Origin: Escherichia phage 1-6af | Strand: one strand, 5' to 3' | Sequence record: OR983333.1 | DNA: 64,000 nucleotides | In this document: positions 8,120 through 49,525 of the stretch, piece by piece | How positions within the stretch are numbered: the first letter of the stretch is position 1 | How the letters are laid out: every line of letters starts with the position of its first letter | Notes under the pieces: model-generated | What the model saw: the letters and a program-made list of their open reading frames with translations, nothing else | The model's database searches: none | Told to the model about the DNA's origin: nothing | Made by a program: the position numbers and the translations under genes

Positions 8120-8186
8120 GACCTAAGTCCTGCCTTCTATAATGTATATAGGGGGTAGGACATTTTTATTTATAAAAGGAGACGTT

Positions 8187-18687: not shown

Positions 18688-19103
18688 ATTTTAATTTCCT
18701 TATTTAATTTGAAAGATTGTTGCTCTCTTTGAGCGGTTATGTATAGTATACATTACGCTTATACCGATAAGAGTACTATATAATATAAGTATCTTTGGTA
18801 GTAGATATAACACACTAGTAATGTATATATTGTATAGCTGATAAAGTTATTGCAGGCTTGTATATTGGGCAATTCACAGAATCCCTTGCAAGTACCGAAG
18901 GGCAGGAGCCACCTGCGAGATAAAAATAGAGAATTAAGGAATCCTTGATTTAGGTTGTAGGGACTCCTAGGGACTTTGATTCTCTATTTAAAAGAATATT
19001 AATTACTTATTACCTAAATAATTAACTAACTTACTTAAACCAAATTCAAGAACAATAGATAAAAAGATTATTCCTAAGAAAGCTAAAAAGTAAAGGATAT
19101 AAG
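18688..19103 (-). promoter_or_regulatory. AT-rich intergenic control region upstream of the SSB gene
   Basis: 416-bp ORF-free AT-rich region with short inverted repeats (AGAGAAT ... ATTCTCT). Confidence 0.3.
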
Positions 19104-20894: not shown

Positions 20895-21092
20895 TTAACT
20901 GTTCACTTTAGCTTCAAGTGTTTCATTTTCAATACTCAAGTCAATCACTACACCAGTAAGCTCAACGACTGCTTGGCGAAGGGCATCTTTACCCATAGAG
21001 TGTACTTGAGATAAGAAGAAAGCTTTACCTTCTTCAGTGGATATGGTTTCTTTCAGTTCAGTTGCAGTCATTCTTTTTCTCTCTCTTTCCAT
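20895..21092 (-). CDS. hypothetical protein
   Basis: 65-aa ORF; operon context. Confidence 0.35.
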   Translation of the reverse strand: MERERKRMTATELKETISTEEGKAFFLSQVHSMGKDALRQAVVELTGVVIDLSIENETLEAKVNS

Positions 21093-21248
21093 AATTCAGC
21101 CAGTTCTAAATAATATTGTGCTTCATCAGCACGTCCTTGTTCACTACAGATGGCGCTTTGACGATAACACCAATCCGATGGCATCTCTTCCACTTCAATC
21201 TCCTTGTTACGAACCAATCAATAAGAATAGTTCATTCGTCTTATTTAT

Positions 21249-21440
21249 TCACTCTGCCAATGCAGGTATCTCTAATCTCTTAATTGTGAATGCTTTGTCT
21301 GGAAACTTTCGAACTAGCTCCGCTGCTTTGCTAATTGCTAAGTTCTCTGTTTCAAAGATACAGAATTGACTATTCAGCGCGGTAATAGTGGAGCCACCAC
21401 TGAAGATGGCCCAAGATTTATAATAATCACGAACACTCAT
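21249..21440 (-). CDS. hypothetical protein
   Basis: 63-aa ORF starting right after the polymerase C-terminal exon. Confidence 0.35.
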   Translation of the reverse strand: MSVRDYYKSWAIFSGGSTITALNSQFCIFETENLAISKAAELVRKFPDKAFTIKRLEIPALAE

Positions 21441-21448
21441 AACCCACC

Positions 21449-21601
21449 TTAGTGCGTATGCATCCAGTTAAGTCCAATCTGACAATCAGATGCCAGAGGA
21501 CATTCCATGTTCAAGTACTCACCAGCTTTCTTAACGCAAAGCTCAGTGTGCTCTTTGAGTTTCTGTACATCGTTACGATTAACTGAGAACTGGCCCTCAT
21601 C
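21449..21601 (-). CDS. DNA polymerase (family A) C-terminal exon / segment
   Basis: Hand translation DEGQFSVNRN ... GLNWMHTH*; continues exon 1 as ...VIDMH|DEGQ..., restoring an HDE motif-C-like sequence and a T7-like C-terminal ...G.NW...H. Confidence 0.6.
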   Translation of the reverse strand, partial: DEGQFSVNRNDVQKLKEHTELCVKKAGEYLNMECPLASDCQIGLNWMHTH

Positions 21602-22208
21602 CATTTATGTTATTCCCAAATTACTTCGGGTATCGGACTATATCATAACAGCATAGCTAATTTGCTGTTGTTGGCGCTTCGAGGGTTTCCCTGTTAACCC
21701 CCTACTCCCGCAGGATAGTCTCTACACTTTCCACTTTCGAATCCATCTACAAGCGATTCCAAAGCTCACACCAAACCTTTCTGCAAGAGCAACACCAGTG
21801 CATTCATTGTTAAGCCAGAACTCTTTAGCAGCATTCTGTCTTTCTCTGTTTCTGCCAGTGTTTGACTCGATAGCATGTGCACTACCTTCTAAGATTTCTA
21901 GATGGTCAGTATTGCAACAAGCTCTATTCTTGCATTTATGGTTAACTTCATAACCGTCAGGGATGTTTCCAAATTTCTCTTCCATGACGTATCTGTGATA
22001 CATGACCCATTTGCCATTTATCATTTTTCGAAAGTAACCATCTTTATTTAGTTTGTGTGAGATAGGGATGATACATCCTGTGCTAGTTGTTTCTAGCACT
22101 AGATCTTTCTTAGCCATATCACCTCCTAATAGCTTAGCTCGGTATTGCCCTCAACTTAATGGTCGGGTTTCACCGAGTTCACCAACTTTTACATGCACAA
22201 TGAAGTTT
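21602..22208 (-). mobile_element. putative group I intron carrying an HNH homing-endonuclease ORF
   Basis: Exon 1 ends ...AUGCAU; intron nt 11-16 GUGCAU can pair with it (P1) giving a U.G at the splice site; intron ends in G; reading frame is restored across the junction. Confidence 0.5.
21722..22117 (-). CDS. HNH homing endonuclease (intron-encoded)
   Basis: HNH motif YEVNHKCKNRACCNTDHL; own AGGAGG RBS; lies inside the polymerase interruption. Confidence 0.7.
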   Translation of the reverse strand: MAKKDLVLETTSTGCIIPISHKLNKDGYFRKMINGKWVMYHRYVMEEKFGNIPDGYEVNHKCKNRACCNTDHLEILEGSAHAIESNTGRNRERQNAAKEFWLNNECTGVALAERFGVSFGIACRWIRKWKV

Positions 22209-23900
22209 ATGCATATCAATTACCTTAGCACAACGAACCCCATCCCTCTCAATCCACTTGTTAAGGAACATCATAGCATATTTCATAACAACAGCACCAG
22301 CACATTGCAGGAGTGTGTTAAGGGCTTTATGAACCATAACTTTACCAGTGGCATCTCGTCTCATTGTAATCTTACGACCATCAACACCAATCAAGTATCC
22401 TTGAGCAGCCTTTTCTGTCATACGATCAATGAGGATTGCAATACATGGGTTCTCTGCCAAGAAACGTGCTCGCATCACTGAACCTTCGTCAGCCCCACCA
22501 CCTACAATTGAACCAAGCTTAGCATCGCCAGCACCGTAGTTGAATGCATAGATAAACGTTTTAGCGTTGTCACGAGTAGGAAGACCAGCAAGTTTCTGGT
22601 TGTGGGAGTGGATATCACCTTCAAGGAGAATATCACGATACATAATAGCAGAAGCTAAACCACGTTCTGCCAGAGCTTTCTTAGCTGGGTTGTTCTCTTC
22701 AATTGCCTCAGCAAGCATATCCCTACACTCTTTAATGAGGTAGTGAGCGAGCATACGAAGTTCAAGCCCAGAACCATCATACCCTAAGAATACTTCTTTA
22801 CCAGCGGGTATGTAATATTTGTAAGCACCTACAGGTTTGTCTTTCTTCCCCGGTTTACCTTTCTCATAAATTACGTTAGTACCTTTTCGTATATAACAAC
22901 CATCAGGAACAACGTTAGTAATAACGAAAGGACGAGAATGATCACTGTCTGAGTTATAGTCAGACTCAAACAAACTGCGACACTCGTGACCAAACAAACC
23001 ACGGGAGGGAATATTAACCACGATACGATGTTTGAATCGAAAAGTCGGCGTAGCGCAGCTGTTAGCTTCTGCCGAAAGTTTACCATCTTCGCGTTCCTTT
23101 GCTATGAGTCCACTGATAAGACCTAGCCTGTGAGCCGCTACAACGCGTCTCTTAAGCAAACTTCCGACACTCCCTAGCTCACCCCCTAACCCTTCTTCAA
23201 GAGTCTCCTCGAGGTTTGTAGGAGCTGTAGGCCACTTGTTTGAAGTGGCTAGTGCTTTCTTAATCTCATCAAACGTTACAGGATTACGTCGATTCGGGTT
23301 TAATCCCAAACCAAACACGTAAGCCTTCATATAGTTCTTAGTTTTAAACCTAAAATGCTTTTCTAAGAACTTCTTAATATCAGCGTCAACCATCTCGGCT
23401 GTCTGCTTCTGCTTAGCATTTCCTCGCATCCAAGCAGTATACCATGCTTGGTATGTTCCATACTTTCTCATATCTTTCTTAATTTCGAAAGTATTCCAAG
23501 GCTTCTTAGATACGTTAAACTCTGGAGGAAGAAAGCCCTCATCCATAAGAGCTTCTTTAACTCGTGCATCTTTCGATGGGTCAAAGTCTACGTATTCGAC
23601 ACAGGTGAAAGCTCCACCAATGTCTTCTCTCTTCAGCCCAACTCTATCACAATAGGCTTGAGGCCACTTCTGCAAAGCTCCAGACTTCTTAAACGGCTTC
23701 ATATAAGTAGAGCCATCTAATCTCATCTTAGGTAAGAGAGGAATCAACTCTCTGTCAATATTAACAATAATCTCTTTAAGGAGGTGAACATACCACCGAG
23801 CATTTCTTCGGTTGAAACTCACTCCGTGCTTTGCTTGCTTAGAGATTATATCAGCGACAGTCATCTCTGTCAAAAATGGAAGAGCGTCCGGGTTGCTCAC
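22209..23900 (-). CDS. DNA polymerase family A, polymerase-domain exon 1
   Basis: Motif A YDGSGLELRMLAHY and motif B RDNAKTFIYAFNYGAGDAKLG; the open frame runs 10 codons into the intron to a stop at 22179. Confidence 0.8.
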
Positions 23901-23916
23901 TTTATACTCCTTTAAA

Positions 23917-24339
23917 TTATTGGTAAAGTAAATCTGTAAATGCTTGGTTATCTTCTACTACATTCAACATGGTGGCTTCATCACTATAAGCCCTAACCGT
24001 CCCGTTGACAACTGTCCAAGGAGGAGGTGGAGGTGGTGCATGGTTAGCCCTAGCTTCACGAGGTTGCTCTCGTACTAAATGAGCCACAACCCTTTGGTTA
24101 GCGACTTCTTCTCTTTCTCGGATAGCTCTTTGGATGTAAGCCAGCTTCATACCCCAAGCTTCTTCAAACTCTTGAGGGTGTTTATCACTGATAACCACAT
24201 ATTGACGTTCAGGAATACCAGATCGAATCTCCGATAATAATTCATGGAACAGATCTAGTTCGTGCTCAGTGAGATTCATTTCGATATCATCCCACTTAAG
24301 AACTAAGAAACGGTTTTGGTGTCTAGCTGGTAATGGCAT
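23917..24339 (-). CDS. hypothetical protein
   Basis: 140-aa ORF with poly-Pro stretch; operon context. Confidence 0.4.
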   Translation of the reverse strand: MPLPARHQNRFLVLKWDDIEMNLTEHELDLFHELLSEIRSGIPERQYVVISDKHPQEFEEAWGMKLAYIQRAIREREEVANQRVVAHLVREQPREARANHAPPPPPPWTVVNGTVRAYSDEATMLNVVEDNQAFTDLLYQ

Positions 24340-24342
24340 AAC

Positions 24343-24618
24343 TCAACCTTTTGGGAATGGCATTAAAGATTCCATAGCAGATTTAATTTCGTTATTGATT
24401 CGTGAGTCACGATAAGAGATAAACTTACCTTTGCTATCACGTAACATCACATTAGTTCTGGCTGTTAAATGAGGGAGTAATGTAATACTGGTTGGGATAG
24501 TATCAATCCCTACAGAACATCTGTCAATAGTTTTGCTTTCAGTTAACAAATAAGACCAAGTCTGCTCTGGATGGTTGGGGTATGTGTCTCGAATCTGTAC
24601 CATAGCTAACTTATTCAT
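24343..24618 (-). CDS. hypothetical protein (tandem paralog A)
   Basis: Shares ARTNV.LR...GKFISY....PFPKG with 24620..24877. Confidence 0.4.
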   Translation of the reverse strand: MNKLAMVQIRDTYPNHPEQTWSYLLTESKTIDRCSVGIDTIPTSITLLPHLTARTNVMLRDSKGKFISYRDSRINNEIKSAMESLMPFPKG

Positions 24619-24619
24619 G

Positions 24620-24877
24620 TTAAACTCCTTTAGGGAATGGGATGAGGTTTTCTACTGCAACACGATATTCTTTCTCTACATCTTTATTCTTATAAGAAAT
24701 GAATTTCCCATCAGCCCCACGGAGGATTACATTAGTACGAGCTGTTTTTGGATTATGACCAATCTGGTTTGCAATTAGGCTGATGTTGTGTTTGACATCA
24801 TGGTTATTAGTGAATTTCCACTTAGCCAGACGGTTAGTCCAAACATCAATGATAGTTACGGTTTTTACAATAGACAT
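24620..24877 (-). CDS. hypothetical protein (tandem paralog B)
   Basis: Paralog of 24343..24618. Confidence 0.4.
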   Translation of the reverse strand: MSIVKTVTIIDVWTNRLAKWKFTNNHDVKHNISLIANQIGHNPKTARTNVILRGADGKFISYKNKDVEKEYRVAVENLIPFPKGV

Positions 24878-24910
24878 AATTATTACCTAAGAAGTTTAAT
24901 TTGGTTTATA

Positions 24911-24940
24911 TAAAAGAAAAGGCCACCCAAGTGGGCAGCC
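24911..24940 (-). terminator. intrinsic terminator
   Basis: GGCTGCCCA-ctt-GGGTGGCC hairpin followed by TTTTCTTTT on minus; near-identical to the terminator at 25157. Confidence 0.5.
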
Positions 24941-24958
24941 TATTGTACTAGAACTGGA

Positions 24959-25144
24959 TTACTCTTCGATGACATTTAATAACAACTTCTGACGGACAAC
25001 TCTTCTCACATATCTATGCTCTTTTTTAATACCGAGAGCACGCTGTCGAACTGAACGCCTGTTTTTGTATTTGTCACACGGATATTTGTCATGACCGGGG
25101 CAGCAATTTCCAGGGTTGATAAAATTGATAATTTCTCTCTTCAT
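24959..25144 (-). CDS. small basic Cys-rich protein
   Basis: 61-aa ORF with CCPGH...C motif, flanked by two near-identical terminators. Confidence 0.4.
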   Translation of the reverse strand: MKREIINFINPGNCCPGHDKYPCDKYKNRRSVRQRALGIKKEHRYVRRVVRQKLLLNVIEE

Positions 25145-25156
25145 CTAATTGCCCTT

Positions 25157-25185
25157 TAATGAAAAGGCCACCCATTTGGGTAGCC
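25157..25185 (-). terminator. intrinsic terminator
   Basis: GGCTACCCA-aat-GGGTGGCC hairpin followed by TTTTCATT on minus. Confidence 0.5.
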
Positions 25186-25190
25186 TCATG

Positions 25191-25508
25191 TTATGATGAG
25201 CTTAAAGCTCCTTTGCGTGCTCCAGCTGCTTTTCCAGCTCGATCACCACTTTTGCCGCCGTTTGAACGGTTTGAGCTGACTGATTCAACACGTAAGTTGC
25301 TTGACGCATTAGAACCTCCAGACTTGACAGCTCGTTTGTGTCCAACGTCTTTACCTCTGACAGCAGCTTTTCCATCGCGCTTTTCAACGATGCGACGTGC
25401 ACGGTGGCGCTGAGCATCTCCGCTCTTGCTCCCAATTCCCGTTTCACCGCGCTTGATCGCAGTCCTTCTTTCTTGTGCATAATCTCTTTTTCCTACATGA
25501 TCTGCCAT
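25191..25508 (-). CDS. basic low-complexity protein (frame uncertain)
   Basis: ATG overlaps the HNH stop (TAATG) with AGGAGA RBS; an alternative overlapping frame 25202..25480 encodes a helical protein. Confidence 0.3.
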   Translation of the reverse strand: MADHVGKRDYAQERRTAIKRGETGIGSKSGDAQRHRARRIVEKRDGKAAVRGKDVGHKRAVKSGGSNASSNLRVESVSSNRSNGGKSGDRAGKAAGARKGALSSS

Positions 25509-25837
25509 TAGATTTCTCCTGATTCTCTTTGATTAAAGGTGTGGATGGCGTGGCAATTAGCACACAATATCCTGCACTTCCTCATCTCTTCTTTTACTTG
25601 AGATAAAGATCTGGTGTGCCCTTTGGAGAGTTCGAATGACTTAGTTAATGGATTTAAATGATCAAACTGAAGAGCAGATGCGTGGCCCTTAAAGCCACAC
25701 TCAGAGCATCCATAGAATGTTTTAACTCTACGAATAAAAGCTAGTTGCCTAACTCTTCTTCTCTCGTTATCTGCCTTTCTCTTATCTCTATTTCCTGGGT
25801 CGGCCCATCTACACGAGTCATTGCAAAACCTCTGCAT
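25508..25837 (-). CDS. HNH homing endonuclease
   Basis: CSECG ... FDHLNP ... CANCH zinc/HNH motifs. Confidence 0.65.
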   Translation of the reverse strand: MQRFCNDSCRWADPGNRDKRKADNERRRVRQLAFIRRVKTFYGCSECGFKGHASALQFDHLNPLTKSFELSKGHTRSLSQVKEEMRKCRILCANCHAIHTFNQRESGEI

Positions 25838-25952
25838 TATATACTTCGTTACAAATGGTACCTTACAGGTTTCACATTCCTTGTGGTAGGTTGCTATTTG
25901 GACCTCCTACTCAGTGTAAATAAAACCCTCTTCTATCATTGACTTTTGAGTA

Positions 25953-26132
25953 CTAATCACTCCACCCTCCCGGTGGTTCAAAATTTTCTTGAACATCCAG
26001 AACCTCTACATCATCACTCAGGTAGGTACTCTTGCCAAAACCTAAAAGCCAGCGAGCTTTATCAATATCTTTATAAAAATTAAGAGCTGCACTACCATCA
26101 TAACACTCACGAACTATAATACCGATTTTCAT
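25953..26132 (-). CDS. hypothetical small protein (59 aa)
   Basis: Below ORF-track cutoff; start overlaps the PhoH stop (TAATG); hand translation. Confidence 0.3.
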   Translation of the reverse strand: MKIGIIVRECYDGSAALNFYKDIDKARWLLGFGKSTYLSDDVEVLDVQENFEPPGGWSD

Positions 26133-26872
26133 TAACTGTTTACCTTTTCCATTGCTTTAACAATCGCCTTACAGAAACCAGAACGAACAATATCATCTGA
26201 CTCACCGTCTACAATCTCAGCGAACTCATACAGATCATGTTCATCAATAAAATTAGTAGCCCAAGTTAGGCCACTCTCACGACCACGCATATCATGCTGG
26301 TTAGTATCACCCATGCAGAACAGCTGAGAGGTTTCTCCCAATCGAGTCATGATTGAGAAGGCTTCATCTTTAGTGGTGTTCTGGAACTCATCAACAATAA
26401 CAATAGCATCATTGAAAGAACGACCACGGAGATATTCCAGAGGTACAAATTCAATGTTACCATTTCCGATTTGGCATTCATAGAATCCCTTACCGTATCG
26501 CTGAGTAATAACATCAATGATAGGCATCAGGTAGGGTTCAAACTTCTCGCGCATTCCTCCCGGAAGTAACCCAAGAGAGTTACCCATGCCGACCGAAGGG
26601 CGACTCAGAATGATCTTCTGAATCTTACCGCTTTTCAGTGCATCAATAACCGTGGAAGTGATTACAAAGGTCTTACCACAGCCCGCAGGAGCATCTGTGA
26701 ACACAACTTGTTTAGTCTTGATAGCATTGAGTAGCTCAGACTGAAACTGGTTCTGAGGGACTACAGGCTTTGCTAAAACCACCTCTTCATACTCTCGCTT
26801 ACCTTTACGAGTAACAAGTGCTTCTCGACGAAGGTCTTTCCGTGATTCTTTCCGTGATTGACGACGACTCAT
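26132..26872 (-). CDS. phoH: PhoH-like ATPase
   Basis: Walker A APAGCGKTF and PhoH-like architecture. Confidence 0.75.
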   Translation of the reverse strand: MSRRQSRKESRKDLRREALVTRKGKREYEEVVLAKPVVPQNQFQSELLNAIKTKQVVFTDAPAGCGKTFVITSTVIDALKSGKIQKIILSRPSVGMGNSLGLLPGGMREKFEPYLMPIIDVITQRYGKGFYECQIGNGNIEFVPLEYLRGRSFNDAIVIVDEFQNTTKDEAFSIMTRLGETSQLFCMGDTNQHDMRGRESGLTWATNFIDEHDLYEFAEIVDGESDDIVRSGFCKAIVKAMEKVNS

Positions 26873-27054
26873 TTACGCTCTCCAATTTCTTCGTAATGAC
26901 ACTCAGTAGTTAAGCAGTCTTTACAGATTGCTGTATAAACCCTGACGTTAGTAAATCGTTTGTTCTTCCCTTTGGTTGGAGAGCCTTTGGCAAGCTCTCT
27001 GATAACCTTGTTACTTAAATGAAGGTTTGTTCCTTCACATTTAGAGCACTTCAT
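26869..27054 (-). CDS. zinc-ribbon protein
   Basis: CSKCEG ... CKDC Cys pairs. Confidence 0.4.
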   Translation of the reverse strand: MKCSKCEGTNLHLSNKVIRELAKGSPTKGKNKRFTNVRVYTAICKDCLTTECHYEEIGERK

Positions 27055-27062
27055 TGTTTACC

Positions 27063-27308
27063 TCAGAAATTATAAGGGTCATAATCAAGAGAATCAAACC
27101 CATAATCTGAGCTATTAAGGTATCGGCGCTTTAATCCGAAATCTTCGTAGTGAGGTTTTCCAGGAACAGTTTTGCCTTTGGTTATGTTCGTTACTTGACT
27201 AGAAGAGAAAAGGTGAACCCCTTCAGAAGTCCTAGCAGAAGATTTTTCTCCTTTCTTAACCACTTTTCCTTTTTTGGCCCATCCTTCGAATGTTCTATAT
27301 TGCATCAA
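27063..27308 (-). CDS. hypothetical protein
   Basis: 81-aa ORF; operon context. Confidence 0.35.
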   Translation of the reverse strand: MMQYRTFEGWAKKGKVVKKGEKSSARTSEGVHLFSSSQVTNITKGKTVPGKPHYEDFGLKRRYLNSSDYGFDSLDYDPYNF

Positions 27309-27314
27309 AACTCC

Positions 27315-27515
27315 TTACCACAATGTCCATTCAGTAAGGGACCACAGAGAGTCCCCTATGTGGGTGTTGTCATGTCGGATGAGATCTTTGATTTTATCAA
27401 CATCAGTCAAGTGAGTTACATTCAAGATATCCTCAACATCTGGAACATGTTTGAATATGGCAACAATGTTATTACCATCATCAGAAAACTCCTCAAGCAC
27501 ATAAACTACACTCAT
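27315..27515 (-). CDS. hypothetical protein
   Basis: 66-aa acidic ORF; operon context. Confidence 0.35.
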   Translation of the reverse strand: MSVVYVLEEFSDDGNNIVAIFKHVPDVEDILNVTHLTDVDKIKDLIRHDNTHIGDSLWSLTEWTLW

Positions 27516-27835
27516 GCGACATTAGCCTCTTTATGAAGTCTATAAATAGCTGTCGCCATGCAAGCAACAGCCTCGTTGTGTGGGAGGTGCATCCCTGTAG
27601 AACCATCCCAATCTTTGAACTCACTGTCAAAGACTCCGGTAGGCTCTGGATACAGAGCTTGCAGCTCCACTAGATCGTTAGCAACTTGTTGCCATTTATC
27701 GTCAGACCAGATAGGGTCATCCAACCAGTAATACAAATAGGAATGGATGATCAATTGCCTTCTGTGCCGATTAATTACTTCAGCGGGACTTATCTCACTT
27801 CCATTTGAAGTCCTAAATGTATTACTGTCAATCAT
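27512..27835 (-). CDS. hypothetical protein
   Basis: 107-aa ORF; start/stop overlap with neighbours. Confidence 0.35.
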   Translation of the reverse strand: MIDSNTFRTSNGSEISPAEVINRHRRQLIIHSYLYYWLDDPIWSDDKWQQVANDLVELQALYPEPTGVFDSEFKDWDGSTGMHLPHNEAVACMATAIYRLHKEANVA

Positions 27836-28038
27836 TACGAAAATTCCCGTTCTGTTAAAGAGTGCTGAACTTCATTATCCGGAGACCAAACCTTTTCTCC
27901 ATTTACCAATTTCTTAGCATCTTCATCTGAAGCACAATCTAAAGCAGGATTATCAGGTGTTGGCTTCTTTGGAAATCTTTTCCAAGTCCAAAAATATCCG
28001 TCATCGTCTTGGCAACCAAGAGTCCACAAAGTTTTCAT
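27835..28038 (-). CDS. hypothetical protein
   Basis: 67-aa ORF; operon context. Confidence 0.35.
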   Translation of the reverse strand: MKTLWTLGCQDDDGYFWTWKRFPKKPTPDNPALDCASDEDAKKLVNGEKVWSPDNEVQHSLTEREFS

Positions 28039-28053
28039 TTCACAACCTTAAAT

Positions 28054-28296
28054 TTAAATGTTGTTGGGTGAGAATAATTCCACACAGTCAAGCATGTAGT
28101 AGGAGTAACCAAAGGGTTTGGCTGTTAAGTTGGAAACCATTTTATCAAAAAGGGATTGAGAAACATCCTCTTCTACTCCAACATCCTCAAGCTGCTGCTT
28201 TGTAGGATAGTCAGTGAAAGAGCAAAGAATTTCTGTATCCTCTCCTCTGTCTGCATCCTCAACACGACTCAGAATCCAAATATTCTTCCTAACCAT
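28054..28296 (-). CDS. hypothetical protein
   Basis: 80-aa ORF; operon context. Confidence 0.35.
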   Translation of the reverse strand: MVRKNIWILSRVEDADRGEDTEILCSFTDYPTKQQLEDVGVEEDVSQSLFDKMVSNLTAKPFGYSYYMLDCVELFSPNNI

Positions 28297-28297
28297 T

Positions 28298-28954
28298 TTA
28301 ATTCTCCAAAGTTTTCTTCAGAGCTGCCCACGAGATTGGGTAGAGCTTAGCCATCTCTTCATCTACGGATTTAGCAAACACTCGAACTTCATATTGAGCG
28401 TGAGAGGATAGTCGCTGACGGCACAACTCAAACCAGCCATACAAAGAACCAGTCCACACCCACTCAGTGATCATCCCCTGAGGAAGAACAAATCGAGCTT
28501 GCTCTGGTGCAATAAATTCAATCAACTTATCATATGCTGCTAAAGAAGCTTCATATGCATCATTAATCAACATTAATGCTTCAGCTCGCTCTCCGTCGAT
28601 GAGTTGAATCCCTGAACCTGCATGGAGGTCCGAAGGTCTCGCAAAAATCTCTTTAGGGATGAAGACTTCAACTGCTCCATCTTTATACCGCCGGGACATT
28701 TCGTTCCACGAGAATCCAACCTGATGCTTTCCCAGCTGTCTCGCAATTGCGATAGGTGCTTTGCATCGGAAACTGACTTGCGGGTGTCGGAATGGAGTAC
28801 AGTGTTTTTCCCGTGCAAGGAAGTTGATAAGTTTTGTGTCTCTCTCATTTAAGTCACCTTCTCGAACAACACCGAAAGATACTCTAGCTGCATTGACTAC
28901 AGATTTGTCACTTCCCATAGCTTCGATTAATGTTGCTTGTAGTTGTTCATTCAT
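28298..28954 (-). CDS. thyX: flavin-dependent thymidylate synthase ThyX
   Basis: Matches ThyX along its length by eye: AARVSF, HCTPF.H...F.CKAPIAIARQ, SRRY, SHAQYEVR. Confidence 0.9.
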   Translation of the reverse strand: MNEQLQATLIEAMGSDKSVVNAARVSFGVVREGDLNERDTKLINFLAREKHCTPFRHPQVSFRCKAPIAIARQLGKHQVGFSWNEMSRRYKDGAVEVFIPKEIFARPSDLHAGSGIQLIDGERAEALMLINDAYEASLAAYDKLIEFIAPEQARFVLPQGMITEWVWTGSLYGWFELCRQRLSSHAQYEVRVFAKSVDEEMAKLYPISWAALKKTLEN

Positions 28955-28969
28955 CCGTGAATATCCTTA

Positions 28970-29245
28970 TTATTTATTGCTCAGGGCTGTATCCAAAAAA
29001 GCTTTCAGGTTTGCTTCAGTCTGCATACCAGAGAGGCTGTAGTGTGCACCACTGTTACGGTCAGGCACAACGAAAGCAGGGATGCTTCGTACACCATACT
29101 TAACAGCTTGCTCACGACCATCACCTTCAAGGATGTTAATCTCTTCCACTTCTACATCAAACTCCTTAACAACCTTCTCAAAGGTAGGAGCCATTGCTTT
29201 ACATGGAGCACACTGATCACTATAAAACTTAATTACTTTAGACAT
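28970..29245 (-). CDS. thioredoxin/glutaredoxin-like protein
   Basis: CAPC redox motif in a thioredoxin-fold-sized protein with cis-Pro-type IPAF segment. Confidence 0.65.
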   Translation of the reverse strand: MSKVIKFYSDQCAPCKAMAPTFEKVVKEFDVEVEEINILEGDGREQAVKYGVRSIPAFVVPDRNSGAHYSLSGMQTEANLKAFLDTALSNK

Positions 29246-29253
29246 GTAAATCC

Positions 29254-29433
29254 TTATGCAGTCAGGAGGTGAAGCAGGAATGGGATAACAACAGCTATGA
29301 TAACCATGATGGTTGATGCTGTTTGAATCTCACCTTTCTTATCAGGGGTTTCTTCAATAAGCTTCCCAGAAGCCCAATAAATACCACCACCAATAAAGAT
29401 AGCCCAAATACCCCATACGATTGCTGATAACAT
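29254..29433 (-). CDS. small membrane protein (2 TM helices, 59 aa)
   Basis: Below cutoff; ATG 29433 with AAGGA RBS; hand translation; the ORF-track frame 29295..29567 is probably a shadow. Confidence 0.35.
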   Translation of the reverse strand: MLSAIVWGIWAIFIGGGIYWASGKLIEETPDKKGEIQTASTIMVIIAVVIPFLLHLLTA

Positions 29434-29493
29434 ATATCTATATCCTTATAAATAAGTTCGCCCCACCTCGGGTTAGGAGACAGGGCGGAGGTT

Positions 29494-30057
29494 TTAGTAA
29501 GACACATCACCACTTGAATGGGACATGTTGCTCTTGACGAAGTAGCAATACTTGCCAAGACCTTCATTAATTTCTTGAAGCATACTCTGATCGACAGGGT
29601 AGGTGGCTAAATCACCATCAAACTCATCCATCTTCTCAATAATACACATCAAGGTCATGCACATATCAGAGAGCATACCGTCCATGTCTAGATCAGCATT
29701 ACCCTCTGAGAACCAAGCATGAGAGAGGTAGTTAGCTGCTGTAGCATCCACTTTAACACAGTGGTAACGCATACGTTCAGCAATACGATCTCCTACCTGT
29801 CGTGCGTAATCTTCCAGCTCATCAAACATACCATGAACACCTTGAAATCCTGCACCAGAGACGTTCCAGTGGTAGTTTTTAGCTTTGATATGCAAGAGTT
29901 CCATGTTAGCTTGTAAGCAGCTCAGGATGTGTTCTAGGCTGTTTCCACTAATCATACCCTGCATTGTTTCAAGGCGAGAGATTGATAGGTCGGACCGGTC
30001 TAACATGCTATAACTGTCACGACCGATCTCAGGTAAATCAAAAACATTCTTATGCAT
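29494..30057 (-). CDS. Dps-like ferritin-fold protein
   Basis: Dps signature region HIKAKNYHWNVSGAGFQGVHGMFDE...IAER; start at Met 30057 with GGAG RBS (ORF track extends to 30096). Confidence 0.6.
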   Translation of the reverse strand: MHKNVFDLPEIGRDSYSMLDRSDLSISRLETMQGMISGNSLEHILSCLQANMELLHIKAKNYHWNVSGAGFQGVHGMFDELEDYARQVGDRIAERMRYHCVKVDATAANYLSHAWFSEGNADLDMDGMLSDMCMTLMCIIEKMDEFDGDLATYPVDQSMLQEINEGLGKYCYFVKSNMSHSSGDVSY

Positions 30058-30379
30058 TTGGGTTTTCTCCATCCAGTTCAACTGAGTTAGCAACATTACG
30101 TGCGATATTATCCATTACCTGCTGAGTAATTACGATGCAGTTCTGTGGGTCTACTGACTTAGAACGCCCCATTTCAGGGTCATACACCTTAACTCGCTTA
30201 GCAGTTGAACCTGTAACCTGAAGAACCTTCAACAGATATCCCTGATTACCAATAGACCAAGCAACAACATCACGATTCTTGATAAAGCGACCAAGCATAT
30301 CACGATGATAAAACTGTTGCATCACCTTGGATTTTGTAATCTCTTCAGTGGGCGGGGCCACTTTACTCAAATCTAACAT
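30050..30379 (-). CDS. hypothetical protein
   Basis: 109-aa ORF; operon context. Confidence 0.35.
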   Translation of the reverse strand: MLDLSKVAPPTEEITKSKVMQQFYHRDMLGRFIKNRDVVAWSIGNQGYLLKVLQVTGSTAKRVKVYDPEMGRSKSVDPQNCIVITQQVMDNIARNVANSVELDGENPNA

Positions 30380-30451
30380 AACTCTCTCCTGTAAAATACA
30401 AATTCTTGTTGTACTCTATATACATTTGAGAGTTACCATATCTACTACCAA

Positions 30452-30661
30452 TCAGTAATAAATTACTTTAGACATAAAAGAACCCGAGTTAGGGTCTTCG
30501 TACCAGCGATGAATGTCAGCACTTTTAACTGTTCCAATTAAAGTTTTCATCTTCTTCTTAGCAATACGAGCATCTTTACGGGTGTCAAATAATTTGATAT
30601 TATCTTTACCTAGATGGTGTCCATCTTCCCAAACAACACGAACAGCCCATATCTTTTTCAT
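30452..30661 (-). CDS. hypothetical protein (tandem paralog)
   Basis: Shares MxxxWxxxxxW start and xYY/HY end with 30661..30855. Confidence 0.4.
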   Translation of the reverse strand: MKKIWAVRVVWEDGHHLGKDNIKLFDTRKDARIAKKKMKTLIGTVKSADIHRWYEDPNSGSFMSKVIYY

Positions 30662-30855
30662 TAGTAATGTACCTTTCCGCTGATATAAACACGACCAGAG
30701 GAATACTCTCTGGCCTTATGAATGCTAATACTCTTAGTTAAGTCCATATTGAACATAGACTTTTTAAACTCTCGAGCTTGTTGGCGGGTAGGTAGTGCAG
30801 TCATAGTCATACCACCTGATGCCCACTTAATCTTCGCTAACCAGAATTGTCTCAT
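30661..30855 (-). CDS. hypothetical protein (tandem paralog)
   Basis: Paralog of 30452..30661. Confidence 0.4.
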   Translation of the reverse strand: MRQFWLAKIKWASGGMTMTALPTRQQAREFKKSMFNMDLTKSISIHKAREYSSGRVYISGKVHY

Positions 30856-30908
30856 TTATCTTTCATCCACATTAAAGGAGAGATGAAGTCTACTTCTCAT
30901 AGACTTCG

Positions 30909-31379
30909 CTAGGAGTTTTGCCTCTTCAAGAGTTTTACTCCATACACAGACTCACGTTTACCATCTTTTTGAACAGATACACAGAACGTCCCGCCCTTCT
31001 CTTGGTAGACATTCTTAACTCCTAGCTTGTTATCAACCCTTGTCTTAGCATTCTGACTGTTCTCAGAGTGAGAGCACTTTCTCAGGTTAGTTTCTTCTAG
31101 GTTTTCTCTGTTACCATCGGCATGATCTATTTGATATTCATCCGATAAATCCTCACCAGTATAAAGAACAAAAAGAATCCTATGATTATGGACACGAACT
31201 CCTCCTAAGGGAATTTGATAATACCCATCTTTTGTGAGCTTGCCATCAGGTTTACCTACTATATCATTAGCAAACTTACTAGGCTTCCTTTTCCAAGAAA
31301 GCCCTGAAGGGGATGACATGTCTATATTAAAGAGATCAACTACTTCATCATAGCATATCAGCATGATTTGTTCCACCAA
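30909..31379 (-). CDS. HNH homing endonuclease
   Basis: HNH motif YQIDHADGNRENL...N. Confidence 0.65.
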   Translation of the reverse strand: MVEQIMLICYDEVVDLFNIDMSSPSGLSWKRKPSKFANDIVGKPDGKLTKDGYYQIPLGGVRVHNHRILFVLYTGEDLSDEYQIDHADGNRENLEETNLRKCSHSENSQNAKTRVDNKLGVKNVYQEKGGTFCVSVQKDGKRESVYGVKLLKRQNS

Positions 31380-31902
31380 AAGCTTTTGTTGGCCCTTGTT
31401 GGTTATTGTATGAACCTTTAGTTGCGTAGCTATCCTCTTCCGAGGATGAGTGTTTAAAGAATTCCATCTGACCGATACGCATTCCCGGCTTGATCAGCAG
31501 AGAGTGGTGCTGTAGGACGTTCTTGAATTCCATAGTTAACTGACTGCCATGCCAACCACCGTCAGCATGACCAGCGTGCATGTGCTCTAAGAAGCAACGA
31601 CCGACAGTAGATCGTAGCATGAAGTCACAGCTAATGTTGTCTGGAAGGTTGAATGTCTCCACTGTATGAGCTAAGAAACACTCACCCGGTTTGATCACCA
31701 ACCCTTCCTCTGGAATCATAACCTCATTGAAATTAGGGGATTCTTTAGCAGAGATATCAACAACCCCATTAGCTGCACCTTCCATCAGAACACGATCTCC
31801 AATACGAACATCAATGCTGGAGGAATTAACAGCTGAGTGTGGTGCATCAATAACACCATCATCAATTAATTTATGTAACTCTGGGCTTCCTAGTAAACTC
31901 AT
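31348..31902 (-). CDS. dcd: dCTP deaminase
   Basis: Length about 184 aa and C-terminal KGSYNNQQG resemble bacterial Dcd. Confidence 0.7.
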   Translation of the reverse strand: MSLLGSPELHKLIDDGVIDAPHSAVNSSSIDVRIGDRVLMEGAANGVVDISAKESPNFNEVMIPEEGLVIKPGECFLAHTVETFNLPDNISCDFMLRSTVGRCFLEHMHAGHADGGWHGSQLTMEFKNVLQHHSLLIKPGMRIGQMEFFKHSSSEEDSYATKGSYNNQQGPTKAFGGTNHADML

Positions 31903-31911
31903 TCTTATTCC

Positions 31912-33225
31912 TTAGTTATTTGTTTCCATGTCAAAAGAGATTCCACGACCCGCTTCATCGGCAAACCGAACTGTACGGGTTTGAGGTTCTAATACTTCAG
32001 GGTTGTTGGCAATAAAGCGATCAGCGAGATTATCTACCACATCTTGGGCCACACCTTCATCAGTCCACACAGCCCTAACAGGTGCGTTGATATCACCAAC
32101 AGCAAAACCCTGACCAGAGAACTGGTGACGGCTAACAGTCAAGCCGTTTGATCGACCACGAGAAGGACTAGACATCCATTGCTCCATAGAATCACTTGTA
32201 ATACCAAGAGCTTCTTCAAAAGATGTTCTACGAGAAGAGCTTAGATTTCGTGCTTCATTTGCTCGACGTCTTGTAGGGGCTACAAACACCCCTTCAATTG
32301 CATTGTGTCGGTTAGGTTCGTCTTCTCTACCAAGCAGATCACCACCTGTATTAGTTGTTAAATTTGTCAACCCTTCAGACCAATACGCATGAATCTGACC
32401 GGAACCGTGAAGACTAGACATAATCTGAATCTCTTCATAAGGGATTCCAAAAAATCGACTCATGTCTCGGTTAACACAATATAGAGCACTTGTTGTATCC
32501 TCAATAAGAGCAACCTGACCTATTTCATTAACAAGATGACTGACTGGCTGAGGTGTAGGAAGGTATCGAGTTTGGGCCATATATTGATATGCAACAGATG
32601 GGGCTGAGAATCTTAACACTTGTGAATTAGGCCACTTTTTGTGAACGTATCTGATTTCACGACTAGAAACAACCACAGGGCAAGGGGCGGTCATAGCTAA
32701 ATACCCATGAGGGGTCATGAATAAGTTGTCAAGAGTCATCGCACCACGGCACATCATAGGAAAGTTATCCAATACCTCTTCGATAGAAGTAGGATAATTA
32801 AACATGAATTGGATACGAACCCCATTCCACTGAAACTCAATAATATCAGTGAATGTTAATTGAGAACCCCCAGCATAGGATTCGTTTGTAGCTTCAGCAA
32901 GAAGAGATGAATACTCAATATCTTGAGACTCAAGCCACTCTTTAACGTTACTTTCAACTTCTCGTCCGAGATCTTGCCACTGCTCATGACGGATGAAAGT
33001 ATTTCGAGTTCTTGGGGCCTGTCCTCTGACAATAAAGATATCAATGTCATGCGGAGCTGTGTTATTAAGCACAGCATCACGAATAGCCCCACCAGTGATG
33101 ATAGGACAAATACAGTCTGGAATCAAGTTGTTGTTAATCAGCTGTTCAATGAAGTGACGACCAACAGTGATATCCGGTTGTTGAGCAACCTTATCTTCAA
33201 TTCGGTTAATCGGGATAACAATCAT
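31912..33225 (-). CDS. Pol-beta-superfamily nucleotidyltransferase (CCA-adding enzyme / poly(A) polymerase-like head)
   Basis: GGAIRDAVL...DIDIFI NTase motif; Ser/Arg-rich C-terminal half; ATG 33225 overlaps upstream stop. Confidence 0.5.
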   Translation of the reverse strand: MIVIPINRIEDKVAQQPDITVGRHFIEQLINNNLIPDCICPIITGGAIRDAVLNNTAPHDIDIFIVRGQAPRTRNTFIRHEQWQDLGREVESNVKEWLESQDIEYSSLLAEATNESYAGGSQLTFTDIIEFQWNGVRIQFMFNYPTSIEEVLDNFPMMCRGAMTLDNLFMTPHGYLAMTAPCPVVVSSREIRYVHKKWPNSQVLRFSAPSVAYQYMAQTRYLPTPQPVSHLVNEIGQVALIEDTTSALYCVNRDMSRFFGIPYEEIQIMSSLHGSGQIHAYWSEGLTNLTTNTGGDLLGREDEPNRHNAIEGVFVAPTRRRANEARNLSSSRRTSFEEALGITSDSMEQWMSSPSRGRSNGLTVSRHQFSGQGFAVGDINAPVRAVWTDEGVAQDVVDNLADRFIANNPEVLEPQTRTVRFADEAGRGISFDMETNN

Positions 33226-33226
33226 T

Positions 33227-33784
33227 TTACATTTTCCAATATAATGAAGGTGGGTCGTAAGGGTCAAATCCTGTGATTTCACACAAGAAAAGATAAACCT
33301 TAACAGTTAAGTTAACGTCCTGTTCACAATAAGTAAACATATCTTCAGTGAAAGCATCCCATGCTTCCTCTTGCTCACCATAATCGCCCTTAAGTTCTCC
33401 TAAGAACTCACCCCACTGCTTCAAACCATGACCCCTTGGGCCACGTCTAGGGTCGCCTTTCGGATACTCAGGACTGTCACCAATACGGTCAGGTTTAAGA
33501 TATCGACTAAGACATAAAGTGTCAAAGACGTTAAAATTATATTTAATCAAAGAGGGATACATCTTCTTCAGAGCAGGTAAGTCGAAGTCAATAATATTAT
33601 GACCCACGAGCACATCTGCTTCTGTCAGTTTACGAATCCCGTCTTCGATTTGGTGAGGCCGATAGCCCCACCTTTCACCAGTTTCAACATCGAAGATATA
33701 AATACACCATACTTTAGTTATGTCATCGTACAGTGCATTACTCTCGATATCGAATGCAAACACTTTCTTCTTTTTCTTTACCAC
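33227..33784 (-). CDS. 3'-5' exonuclease (family-A polymerase exo domain encoded as a separate gene)
   Basis: Exo I FDIESNAL, Exo [14 protein letters not shown], Exo III-like YCEQDV, matching the T7 polymerase N-terminus. Confidence 0.8.
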
Positions 33785-35568
33785 GGTGAAGCTCCATCTG
33801 CTTGGTTGACGAGAGAAGCTGCATCCTCTCCATTAGTTAAAACGAATGGATTATCTTCATCAACTTCAAAGTCTTCCCTCTCTACAAGTCTACCGGTTTC
33901 ACTGATATACTTAGTATAACAGACACCTGTCTGACCGTAGTTGCGTTCTTTCAGTAATCGAATGACTGAGAGGTTCTTAGCTAAGCCGTCAGCTTGCTTG
34001 TCACGCTCAAAACCAATGATACACTGACACCAACGCATAAGAGAACGAGAGCCAGTGAACTGCACTTCACGTACCTGTCCACCTTCTTCATGAGGAGCAC
34101 CACCTGCCGGAGCATTAAGGTGAGATAACACGAAAGCGGTAAAGTCTAGTTCTTTACACATACCAGCAAGCTCGGAAGCAATCTTACTGATTTCAGTGTT
34201 AATCTCTGAAGGGGTTAAATGAGACACCAGAGCGGTAATGTTATCAAGGATGATGAACTTACACTGGTTTTCAACTACCCAGAAACGAATACACTGTTTA
34301 ATGTCTTCCCACTCATTCTGTCCGAAGTTGTCATACAAGAAGAATTTGTCTGCATAACGAAGTGCTTCATTACGCAAATCCTCCTCATCATATTCAACAT
34401 CGGGTCGGTGGAAAGGAATTGATGCTGACTTACCAGCAATGTTCTTAACAGACATGCCTACCTTCTCTTCCAAGAAGAAGCCACCTCCATTAAAACCATG
34501 CTCTAAGCACAGATGAGCAACCAGCTCGTGAGCAATGAGTGTTTTACCACTACCAACCCCACCACCAATTGCTACCACCTCTCCCCATCGAATACCGAAG
34601 GTCATCTCATTCAGAGTCTTCCACGGATATGGGATACCCCACTCCGCTTTCTTCAGAGCATCATCAAGGCAATCAAAGATTGTTACAGCTCCAGCAGGAG
34701 ATTCCCGCTTTGCTGAATACTTGAGAATGTTGAATAACTCTTGACCACGACCAGACAGAAGCATATCATTCGCATCCTTAATCTCTTTCTCCACACCGTT
34801 GTATGGGAAGGTTCCTTTAGGGATACGAGCAAACTTGACATGAGGGAATAAAGAACGACCTTTTGTTAAAGCTATCTCACCTGCATCATCGTTGTCCATG
34901 CAGAGCACAACCTCCTCAAAACCATTTACGAAGTCTCGATTACGAGACAACACAGAAGAGATTGAACCTGCACCGAACGGTAAAGAAACACAGGCTGGTT
35001 TAATGTTTGTTGCATTTGTAAAAGCTGTAAGGACATGGAAACCAGACATACAAGATAGCGGGTCTTCAAAAATGAAGAGCTTCTTGTTGTACACATCTCC
35101 ACGTTGAGCTTGTGCCATACCAAATAAATCTGCTTCTTTCACACTGCCGACATAATAAAACTTCTTATTATCTAGCAGCTTAACCTCGTAACCAACAATG
35201 TTTCCATCACGTTCGCGAGGAAAGAAGTAGCTGTCTGGAGTCTGACCGTCAGTTTGACTGAGGCCAATACGACACTCAAAACGCTCTGATACAGCTTTTG
35301 GGATTAAACGTCGAGTAAGCTCTCCCTGAGGAAGCTCTAAGCAATCATCTAAGACTTCTCTCAACTCTTCAGGGGATAACTCTTTTCTCTCGTTTGGAGT
35401 AGGTGTAGTGCCCTTTTCGAACACTTCGTAATTCCCACAACGGTTACAACTTCCCCACTCCTCACCTGTCTCTTCGTTACGGAAGAGAATCATGTGGTTG
35501 TGGGTTTTATCACGACCATGAGAGATACATTCCTTACAACCTGTGTCTCCCAAAATGATCTTTGACAT
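33778..35568 (-). CDS. DNA primase-helicase (T7 gp4-like)
   Basis: N-terminal zinc ribbon, [16 protein letters not shown], helicase Walker [10 protein letters not shown] and Walker B IILDNI. Confidence 0.85.
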
Positions 35569-49420: not shown

Positions 49421-49510
49421 TCCAAGAGCCTCTAGCGAGGATGACAGGGTTCGAACCTGCATACTCCAATTACTTCTTTAACGACCGCTTAGAAGGCGGG
49501 GAAGATACAT
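49421..49510. repeat. palindromic tRNA-like intergenic element
   Basis: 13-bp perfect inverted repeat TCTAGCGAGGATG ... CATCCTCGCTAGA enclosing GGTTCGAACC and a CCGC-CTTCTAA-GCGG stem-loop (minus sense). Confidence 0.45.
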
Positions 49511-49525
49511 CCTCGCTAGAAGCTC

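Follow-up and report, generated by a model that had tools for sequence, protein, structure and literature searches.

A split T7-type DNA polymerase with a predicted group I intron in motif C of its polymerase gene in Escherichia phage 1-6af

Introduction

In phage T7 the family A DNA polymerase (PolA), gp5, is a single polypeptide, with an N-terminal 3'-5' exonuclease (exo) domain ahead of the polymerase (pol) domain. Elsewhere the two domains are known to be encoded apart: the description of phage tf reports a split polymerase across the whole LUZ24 group and a similar organization in phiEco32, and also mentions an intron in the LUZ24 pol gene (PMC3517423); a comparative study of Kuravirus describes a DNA polymerase in phage YF01 whose 5'-3' and 3'-5' exonuclease subunits are encoded separately (PMC9965538). 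In phiEco32/Kuravirus-like and LUZ24-like phages, separate exo and pol genes are a lineage-wide trait that has already been reported, and observing them again is no new discovery. Here we consider the replicase genes of Escherichia phage 1-6af (sequence record OR983333.1) in a stretch of 64,000 nucleotides, referred to below as the window, in which the pol gene is split again by a putative group I intron, so that two of the three polymerase pieces would be joined at the RNA level.

Two further systems bear on this locus. In S-SBP1-like cyanophages, an independent and recent fission has divided PolA into adjacent genes (Czernecki et al., 2023; PMC10201439); AlphaFold2 modeling of that split T7-like PolA predicts that the exo-pol complex is preserved, and the stability of PolAs is reported to depend on the exo domain (PMC10201439). 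A biochemical study or purification of a naturally split family A replicase was not found in the searchable literature. Among T7-like phages, PhiI and W31 carry introns at E. coli Pol I site 881 (His881/Asp882); these belong to subgroup IA2, encode the endonuclease I-TslI in P6a, and have had their splicing described (PMC3428280, which cites Bonocora & Shub, 2004, for the I-TslI-type IA2 intron in gene 5 of T7-like phages).

Results and Discussion

Exonuclease and polymerase genes

A megablast search with positions 21000-34000 matched 99 phage records, nearly all of them E. coli podophages of the phiEco32/Kuravirus group, and identifies the window phage as a phiEco32/Kuravirus-type coliphage (Gordonclarkvirinae); the best match is phage FH3 (99.4% identity over 98% of the query). 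Transcription across the 21-36 kb region runs on the minus strand (Table 1). A first-pass annotation of the window had placed a 185-aa exonuclease gene with T7-like Exo I-III motifs about 9 kb from a polymerase domain starting at 23900, with about 25 genes between them, including those for a nucleotidyltransferase, dCTP deaminase, Dps-like protein, ThyX, PhoH, and HNH proteins. That outline is borne out by the open reading frame (ORF), Pfam, PHROG, and motif assignments for the exonuclease, by the start codon of the pol ORF, by the measured distance of 9,326 bp from exo stop to pol start, and by Pfam and PHROG scans of the intervening genes.

The exo ORF matches Pfam DNA_pol_A_exo1 (PF01612) above the curated cutoff (1.2e-8; 35.4 bits against 23.6) and two PHROG families named "DNA polymerase exonuclease subunit" (1e-76 and 1e-38), a name also given to the small exo gene in GenBank records. 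It carries the DxE, Nx2-3(F/Y)D, and Yx3D motifs and RNase H-like fold of PolA-type DEDDy exonucleases: Exo I reads FDIES (D12, E14), Exo II HNIIDFD (H62, N63, D68), and Exo III YCEQD (Y152, D156). Residues D12, E14, H62, N63, D68, and D156 are invariant across 40 homologs, and Y152 is conserved in at least 90% of homolog sequences. The GTG start codon is preceded by GGAG and overlaps the stop codon of the primase/helicase gene (GTGGTAA). Homologs of this protein in a collection of 5.8 billion proteins are stand-alone in 65 of 65 cases, with lengths of about 100-250 aa and identities down to 34%.

At the other end of the exo gene, the mechanically called nucleotidyltransferase ORF (31912-33282, minus strand; 456 aa, GTG start) overlaps it by 56 nt. 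The PHROG match of this ORF begins only at residue 20, and relatives annotate a 437-aa protein from an ATG at 33225, 2 nt past the exo stop; the two genes therefore abut without overlap.

The pol ORF has a GTG start codon at 23900, preceded by a Shine-Dalgarno sequence (AGGAG). It matches DNA_pol_A in Pfam and DNA polymerase families in PHROG. Its product has a palm/fingers/thumb fold and contains motifs A (DxxxLE), B (RxxxKxxxYxxxYG), and C (HDE) of the T7-like cluster of family A, the last of which is complete in the window only once the putative intron is conceptually removed. The motif A (D375, E380), B (R443, K447, Y451, G456), and C (H564, D565, E566) residues are invariant in 47 homologs. 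Given the invariance of catalytic residues across the 40 exo and 47 pol homologs, both halves appear to be under selection for catalysis. The best sequence match of pol in the Protein Data Bank (PDB) is T7 gp5 (E = 1e-32), which is also the top Foldseek match (1.6e-25) of its AlphaFold2 model (predicted local distance difference test score, pLDDT, 88.5). The thioredoxin-binding loop of T7 gp5 has its aligned counterpart in a pol segment at about aa 55-109, which is about 25 residues shorter.

Searched against all PDB sequences, exo likewise matched T7 gp5 alone (query 10-160 to gp5 3-178, E = 2e-12). Its AlphaFold2 model (pLDDT 94.7) has T7 gp5 as all of its top 27 PDB fold matches (E about 1e-11), and the free-standing DnaQ-type nucleases TREX, ExoI, and diDNase follow at about 1e-5. 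The alignment to T7 gp5-like polymerases that the first-pass annotation had proposed maps the domain boundaries cleanly: in hhalign comparisons with gp5 of the T7-like phage 13a, the exo family falls on residues 2-190 (probability 99.7%) and the pol family on residues 206-704 (100%). The two products tile gp5, with the break at the inter-domain linker. Similarly, one full-length PolA profile, phrog_17, is matched by exo at 667-826 and by pol at 836-1185, adjacent and without overlap. Exo and pol are complementary halves of one T7-type polymerase. The pol polypeptide begins at the equivalent of gp5 residue 206 and lacks the N-terminal exo domain that the T7-like cluster carries in the same chain; an intact exo domain within the pol ORF, which the first-pass annotation had named as a finding that would overturn it, is not present: the pol family profile aligns to gp5 206-704 only.

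The same annotation had allowed that the small ORF might fit free-standing DnaQ-type exonucleases better than it fits the polymerase. The search results above favor the T7 gp5 exo domain on both sequence and fold, and a tblastn search returned 1,925 phage records, nearly all annotated DNA polymerase genes. An unrelated DnaQ-type enzyme that merely resembles a polymerase domain, for which a weak secondary Pfam match is the one point in favor (RNase_H_2, 1.4e-4), is in our estimate refuted by these tests. So is the related suggestion that the layout is an assembly artefact: the same exo/pol layout is repeated in the 99 phage records, about as many independent genomes, and in several independent metagenomic contigs, so the separation of the genes is due neither to chance nor to assembly.

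Table 1. Features of the polymerase locus and neighboring genes, in window positions
Feature	Position	Strand	Evidence or remark
Primase/helicase gene (T7 gp4-like)	33778-35568	-	Pfam DnaB_C 1e-10; phrog_239 1e-175
Stand-alone 3'-5' proofreading exonuclease subunit, 185 aa	33227-33784	-	Pfam, PHROG, hhalign, AlphaFold2 and fold search
Cassette between the halves, 9.3 kb, about 25 genes	23901-33226	-	Pfam and PHROG scans; Bas90 and ES17 annotation
Free-standing HNH endonuclease gene, adjoining dCTP deaminase gene	30909-31379	-	Present in ES17, absent in Bas90
Thioredoxin gene	28970-29245	-	Pfam Thioredoxin 2e-13
Stand-alone Nlig-Ia domain protein, 107 aa	27512-27835	-	Pfam PF22745 3.8e-35
ORF with weak HNH match	25508-25837	-	3.6e-4, just below cutoff
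Polymerase exon 1, codons 1-564, ending ..VIDMH in motif C	22209-23900	-	hhalign, AlphaFold2
Putative group I (IA2-type) intron, 607 nt	21602-22208	-	Exact insertion relative to Bas90/ES17; Rfam Intron_gpI; homology; helices
Internal guide sequence GUGCAU	22193-22198	-	Intron P1
Intron-encoded HNH homing endonuclease, 131 aa	21722-22117	-	Pfam HNH_3 7e-12; phrog_6254 2e-41
J8/7-P7' element AUGAUAUAGUCC	21635-21646	-	Intron core
Intron terminal G	21602	-	Last base
Polymerase exon 2, codons 565-614 and stop	21449-21601	-	PHROG DNA polymerase C-terminus matches

An interruption in polymerase motif C

As called, the window pol ORF encodes 573 aa and ends ..VIDMH-KLHCACKSW*, at a point where the 614-aa polymerases of relatives read ..VIDMHDEGQFSV... 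The missing C-terminus is found in a 51-codon ORF (21449-21604) reading MDEGQFSV...; the exon proper begins with D565-E566 of motif C, and ORF callers extend it to 21604 through the last three intron bases, AUG. Position 21449, the lower bound given in the first-pass annotation, is the end of this third polymerase piece, which that annotation had left unexplained; beyond it, too, are the published status of the exo/pol split and the further division of pol by an intron. Aligned against the DNA of Bas90 and ES17, the pol gene of the window contains an exact insertion of 607 nt that separates the His codon of motif C from its Asp codon. Conceptual splicing restores the HDE motif and a 614-aa protein with two differences from the Bas90 polymerase (R552K and G554K). 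The last base of exon 1 completes a CAU codon in all intron-bearing alleles and CAC in the intron-less Bas90 and ES17, and so supplies the U required at the splice site. This pattern fits co-conversion of the flanking exon during homing, and also a 5' splice site that requires a U.G pair. An intein was also considered for the insert and rejected: the exon frame contains stop codons, the HNH ORF has its own ribosome-binding site, and it is not fused in frame to the exons.

The insert can be folded into a group I core. In P1 the guide GUGCAU pairs with AUGCAU of the exon, forming U.G at the splice site; in P10, CUUCAUU directly 5' of the guide pairs with GAUGAGG of exon 2. P3 (GUUGGUG/CGCCAAC), P7 (GACUAU/AUAGUC), and a P9 with a GUAA loop are formed, and P1, P3, P4, P5, P7, P7.1, P7.2, P8, P9, and P10 all form in the window copy, with P7.1 and P7.2 linked by GUA. 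Helices were parsed by conserved anchors; a MAFFT alignment of ORF-deleted introns misaligned the P7.2-P3'-P8 region and was not used. Across ten copies from Kuravirus-like, T7-like, Vibrio, and Aeromonas phages, compensatory changes occur in P1, P3, P5, P7.2, P8, and P9. In P1 an A-U pair in the Kuravirus-like phages and Vp_R1 (exon codon AUG) is replaced by G-C in the T7-like phages (GUG); P3 has four different sequences among the ten copies, P5 alternates between C-G and U-A, and P7.2, P8, and P9 are entirely different stems in the window, 13a, Vp_R1, and PT2.

The U.G pair at the 5' splice site, the terminal G, the P3-P9 core with J8/7, and P7.1/P7.2 are the features of subgroup IA2. The HNH ORF has an AGGAGG ribosome-binding site of its own and runs from the P6 region to the 5' strand of P7, its stop codon abutting P7; its product aligns along all 131 aa, free of gaps and at 59% identity, with that of the 13a intron ORF, an arrangement of the I-TslI type in which an HNH protein homologous to T7-like intron ORFs lies inside the P6 region. 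The window intron and that of T7-like phages share 65-68% identity, and in 13a, JeanTinguely, Bas102, and K1F the polymerase coding sequence is annotated as joined around the homologous element. On this sequence evidence, the insert appears to be a mobile group IA2 intron of the PhiI/W31 (I-TslI) family. Its self-splicing is expected by homology to the PhiI/W31 introns and from the restored reading frame.

We consider it highly improbable that motif C has simply been fractured by a free-standing HNH gene, with no splicing, leaving 573-aa and 51-aa fragments that assemble or a dead gene. Such a fracture would agree with the GenBank records of relatives, which annotate two "DNA polymerase" coding sequences and a homing endonuclease, with the in-frame AUG ahead of exon 2, and with an Rfam score under threshold (see below). 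However, a complete group I core with compensatory changes in six helices, the splice-site U.G, the terminal G, and the P10 pairing with exon 2 would be unexplained by it, as would the similarity and identical site of the T7-like intron, around which coding sequences are joined and whose PhiI/W31 members have described splicing (PMC3428280). After a fracture, moreover, a 51-aa peptide would carry the Asp-Glu that is catalytic in motif C, and the intron-bearing phages were isolated as viable lytic phages.

By blastn, about seven Kuravirus-like phages (FH3, 1-6bf, PE006, pEC-N1203-2Af.1, PAS59, ECBP2, and SU7) have an insert with 85-100% identity to that of the window. Presence of the motif C intron in about 7 of some 90 Kuravirus-like genomes is a patchy distribution that fits mobility. 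A scan of IMG/VR with the Kuravirus-type 5' junction pattern, which is not very specific, gave 13 matches, 2 of them true intron copies, suggesting that the intron is rare there too. The inspected records of intron-bearing relatives annotate no joined gene, and none of the inspected GenBank records of intron-bearing Kuravirus-like phages carries an "intron" annotation; among 20 listed papers that mention Kuravirus, the word is absent from those focused on the group and appears once in one of the others. What appears in the window phage and about six relatives as two DNA polymerase genes plus a homing endonuclease is thereby corrected to what would be one intron-containing gene.

Another intron site was seen in the same gene. 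A metagenomic Kuravirus-like contig (L012:4354-4617; a second copy is in contig L013) has a different group I intron, without an ORF, between ..AKTFIYAFN and YGAGD.. of pol motif B that scores 102 bits on Rfam Intron_gpI. Database pol fragments of about 450 aa (P0076, P0080-82, P0120, and P0135 of Aeromonas phage BUCT695) are probably interrupted at the same motif B site. Together with the motif C intron, these observations suggest that the pol gene of this phage group has been invaded at two or more conserved motifs.

Age of the fission and proofreading in the split enzyme

The order gamma-glutamyl cyclotransferase, primase/helicase, exo, cassette, and pol is repeated in Bas90 and ES17. The LUZ24-like phage BroderSalsa has the gene order of the window with an exo-pol gap of 1.6 kb, and in metagenomic contigs with that order the gap measures 8.3 kb or exceeds 10 kb and contains genes for DCD, ThyX, ferritin, and NrdD/NrdG. 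Homologs of the pol protein include the "DNA polymerase part II" of the LUZ24 group (38-41% identity). These data are most simply read as one old fission event in a T7-type gene 5, in which exo kept the start of gene 5 just after the gene 4 homolog and the nucleotide-metabolism cassette grew between the polymerase halves after the fission.

We hold it to be quite likely that the three segments make up one T7-gp5-type replicase, through an ancient exo/pol fission, reassembly of the two proteins, and splicing of the motif C intron. Fission of the ancestral polymerase would have taken place at the inter-domain linker, leaving exo in its ancestral place behind primase/helicase and pol 9.3 kb downstream, past an inserted cassette of nucleotide-metabolism and homing-endonuclease genes. 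Exo would be translated just after primase/helicase and is probably coupled to it; the pol pre-mRNA would self-splice by means of P1 and P10, joining the exons into the message for a 614-aa polymerase; and the 185-aa and 614-aa proteins would dock non-covalently in a T7-gp5-like geometry as a two-subunit proofreading polymerase. Such an enzyme, in which exo and pol most likely associate physically, is favored here over a polymerase without intrinsic proofreading.

Several points weigh against this reconstruction. P6 is tentative, at 3 bp and derived by hand (GCU/AGU in the window and GCC/GGC in 13a, with a mismatch in Vp_R1). The match to Rfam Intron_gpI (RF00028) reaches 26.2 bits (E = 2e-4) and covers the 3' part, below the gathering cutoff of 50 bits; at the gathering threshold Rfam returned no intron in the whole window, and the 26.2-bit match was seen in E-value mode on a 1.1-kb region. 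The annotated homolog in phage 13a (601 nt) is likewise under the threshold, at 37.9 bits, which suggests that a low score is a property of the ORF-bearing subfamily, and is probably due to the 400-nt ORF inside the intron. Splicing in the window phage itself is deduced from its sequence. The binding of exo to pol is argued from conserved gene order and from modeling of a different split PolA, and the split in phiEco32 is attributed to Savalia 2008 second-hand, through the phage tf paper (PMC3517423).

The exo protein might instead be an independent enzyme, acting in recombination, repair, host-DNA degradation, or editing in trans at variable dosage, and the polymerase might work alone without proofreading. 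The 9.3 kb between the genes, their separate translation units, and the confident fold of the pol model on its own all agree with such independence. We nevertheless consider it unlikely: exo is specifically T7-gp5-like and unlike free-standing DnaQ, TREX, and ExoI; every genome examined encodes it together with an exo-less pol in a conserved order; PolAs are reported to need the exo domain, and the split T7-like PolA is predicted to keep its complex (PMC10201439). Expression in phiEco32 points the same way. There the polymerase and nucleotide-metabolism genes have been placed in a single middle-expression cluster (PMC8948821); exo and pol of the window lie on one strand within the equivalent block, with no exact copy of the phage promoter motif TAATGTATA between them.

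A variant in which exo is no fixed part of the polymerase, and instead edits in a dissociable and dosage-dependent way, much as the epsilon subunit of Pol III functions, seems to us distinctly doubtful. Were it true, the phage could set its replication fidelity through the exo:pol ratio, since exo is translated with primase/helicase and far from pol, and intron splicing would add a control on the amount of active pol. Different temporal regulation of exo and pol was considered separately and dropped, given the absence of the promoter motif between them and the single cluster of the phiEco32 genes. A split replicase in easily grown coliphages would offer a convenient system for asking if PolA can proofread across a non-covalent interface.

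Cassette genes and other features of the window

The cassette between the polymerase halves contains genes for the nucleotidyltransferase, dCTP deaminase, an HNH protein, a ferritin/Dps-like protein, thioredoxin, ThyX, a Nlig-Ia domain protein, and PhoH, along with small ORFs. Thioredoxin has been proposed as a processivity factor in the related phage Privateer (PMC7881722). Nlig-Ia is the N-terminal NAD+-binding domain of NAD-dependent DNA ligases, and relatives label the 107-aa protein "DNA ligase." Homing-endonuclease insertions make up much of the genome difference among relatives in the cassette region.

The motif TAATGTATA is the single-element promoter motif of the phiEco32 sigma factor gp36 (phi32_gp36), and overall it occurs at chance frequency. 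Three exact copies are present in the window, at 8140-8148 (plus strand), 18747-18755 (minus strand), and 18819-18827 (plus strand), the latter two facing each other near 18.8 kb; copies with one mismatch are also at chance frequency. Elsewhere in the window, positions 49436-49514 (minus strand) gave an Rfam tRNA match of 29.7 bits against a gathering cutoff of 29, and ARAGORN predicted no tRNA anywhere in the window; the match may reflect a tRNA that is degenerate or atypical, or may be due to chance.

Comparison with known systems

The exo/pol arrangement of the window is identical to that of the phiEco32/Kuravirus replication module, with separate and distant genes, and the gene order and sequence of FH3, 1-6bf, ES17, and Bas90 match the window phage at 92-99% identity. 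As compared with most Kuravirus members, the window phage additionally contains the motif C intron and is no different in its exo/pol split. Exo and pol are also separate genes in the Bruynoghevirus-like LUZ24 group ("DNA polymerase part I" and "part II"); there the gap of about 1.6 kb in BroderSalsa holds six small ORFs, as compared with about 25 genes in 9.3 kb in the window. In S-SBP1, by contrast, a recent +1 frameshift gave rise to the two genes, which lie side by side, and the exo-pol complex is inferred from modeling. The fission described here is an independent and older event than that of S-SBP1, given that its genes are 9.3 kb apart and that it is common to a broad and deep clade.

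By structure and by sequence, both halves have their best relative in T7 gp5, which is a single polypeptide. The motif B tyrosine Y451 is the equivalent of T7 Y526, and the exo gene comes after the primase/helicase gene, an order that mirrors genes 4 and 5 of T7. The window pol differs in three insertions (at about aa 140-205, 320-365, and 391-415) that are absent from the T7 pol domain, and whereas T7 uses host thioredoxin, the window phage encodes its own.

The closest relative of the putative intron is that of T7-like gene 5 (PhiI, W31, 13a, and K1F). Both are inserted between the His and Asp of motif C, at E. coli Pol I site 881, share core sequences (GGUGAACUCGGUGAA..., AGACUAUCC..., and AUGAUAUAGUCC), and carry their ORF in the P6 region. 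In the window, however, the host gene is that of a different phage family and encodes an exo-less pol; the guide has U where the T7-like copies have C, in step with A in place of G in the exon (AUG vs. GUG codon); and the intron has a longer P5, a shorter P7.2, and a different P8. The window intron is a new addition to a known intron family, in a new host lineage, and the shared family and site suggest intron exchange between unrelated coliphage families that have hosts in common. The motif C intron may have crossed from T7-like phages into this different family, with its guide re-tuned to the new exon; if so, it would be a natural example of homing across family boundaries.

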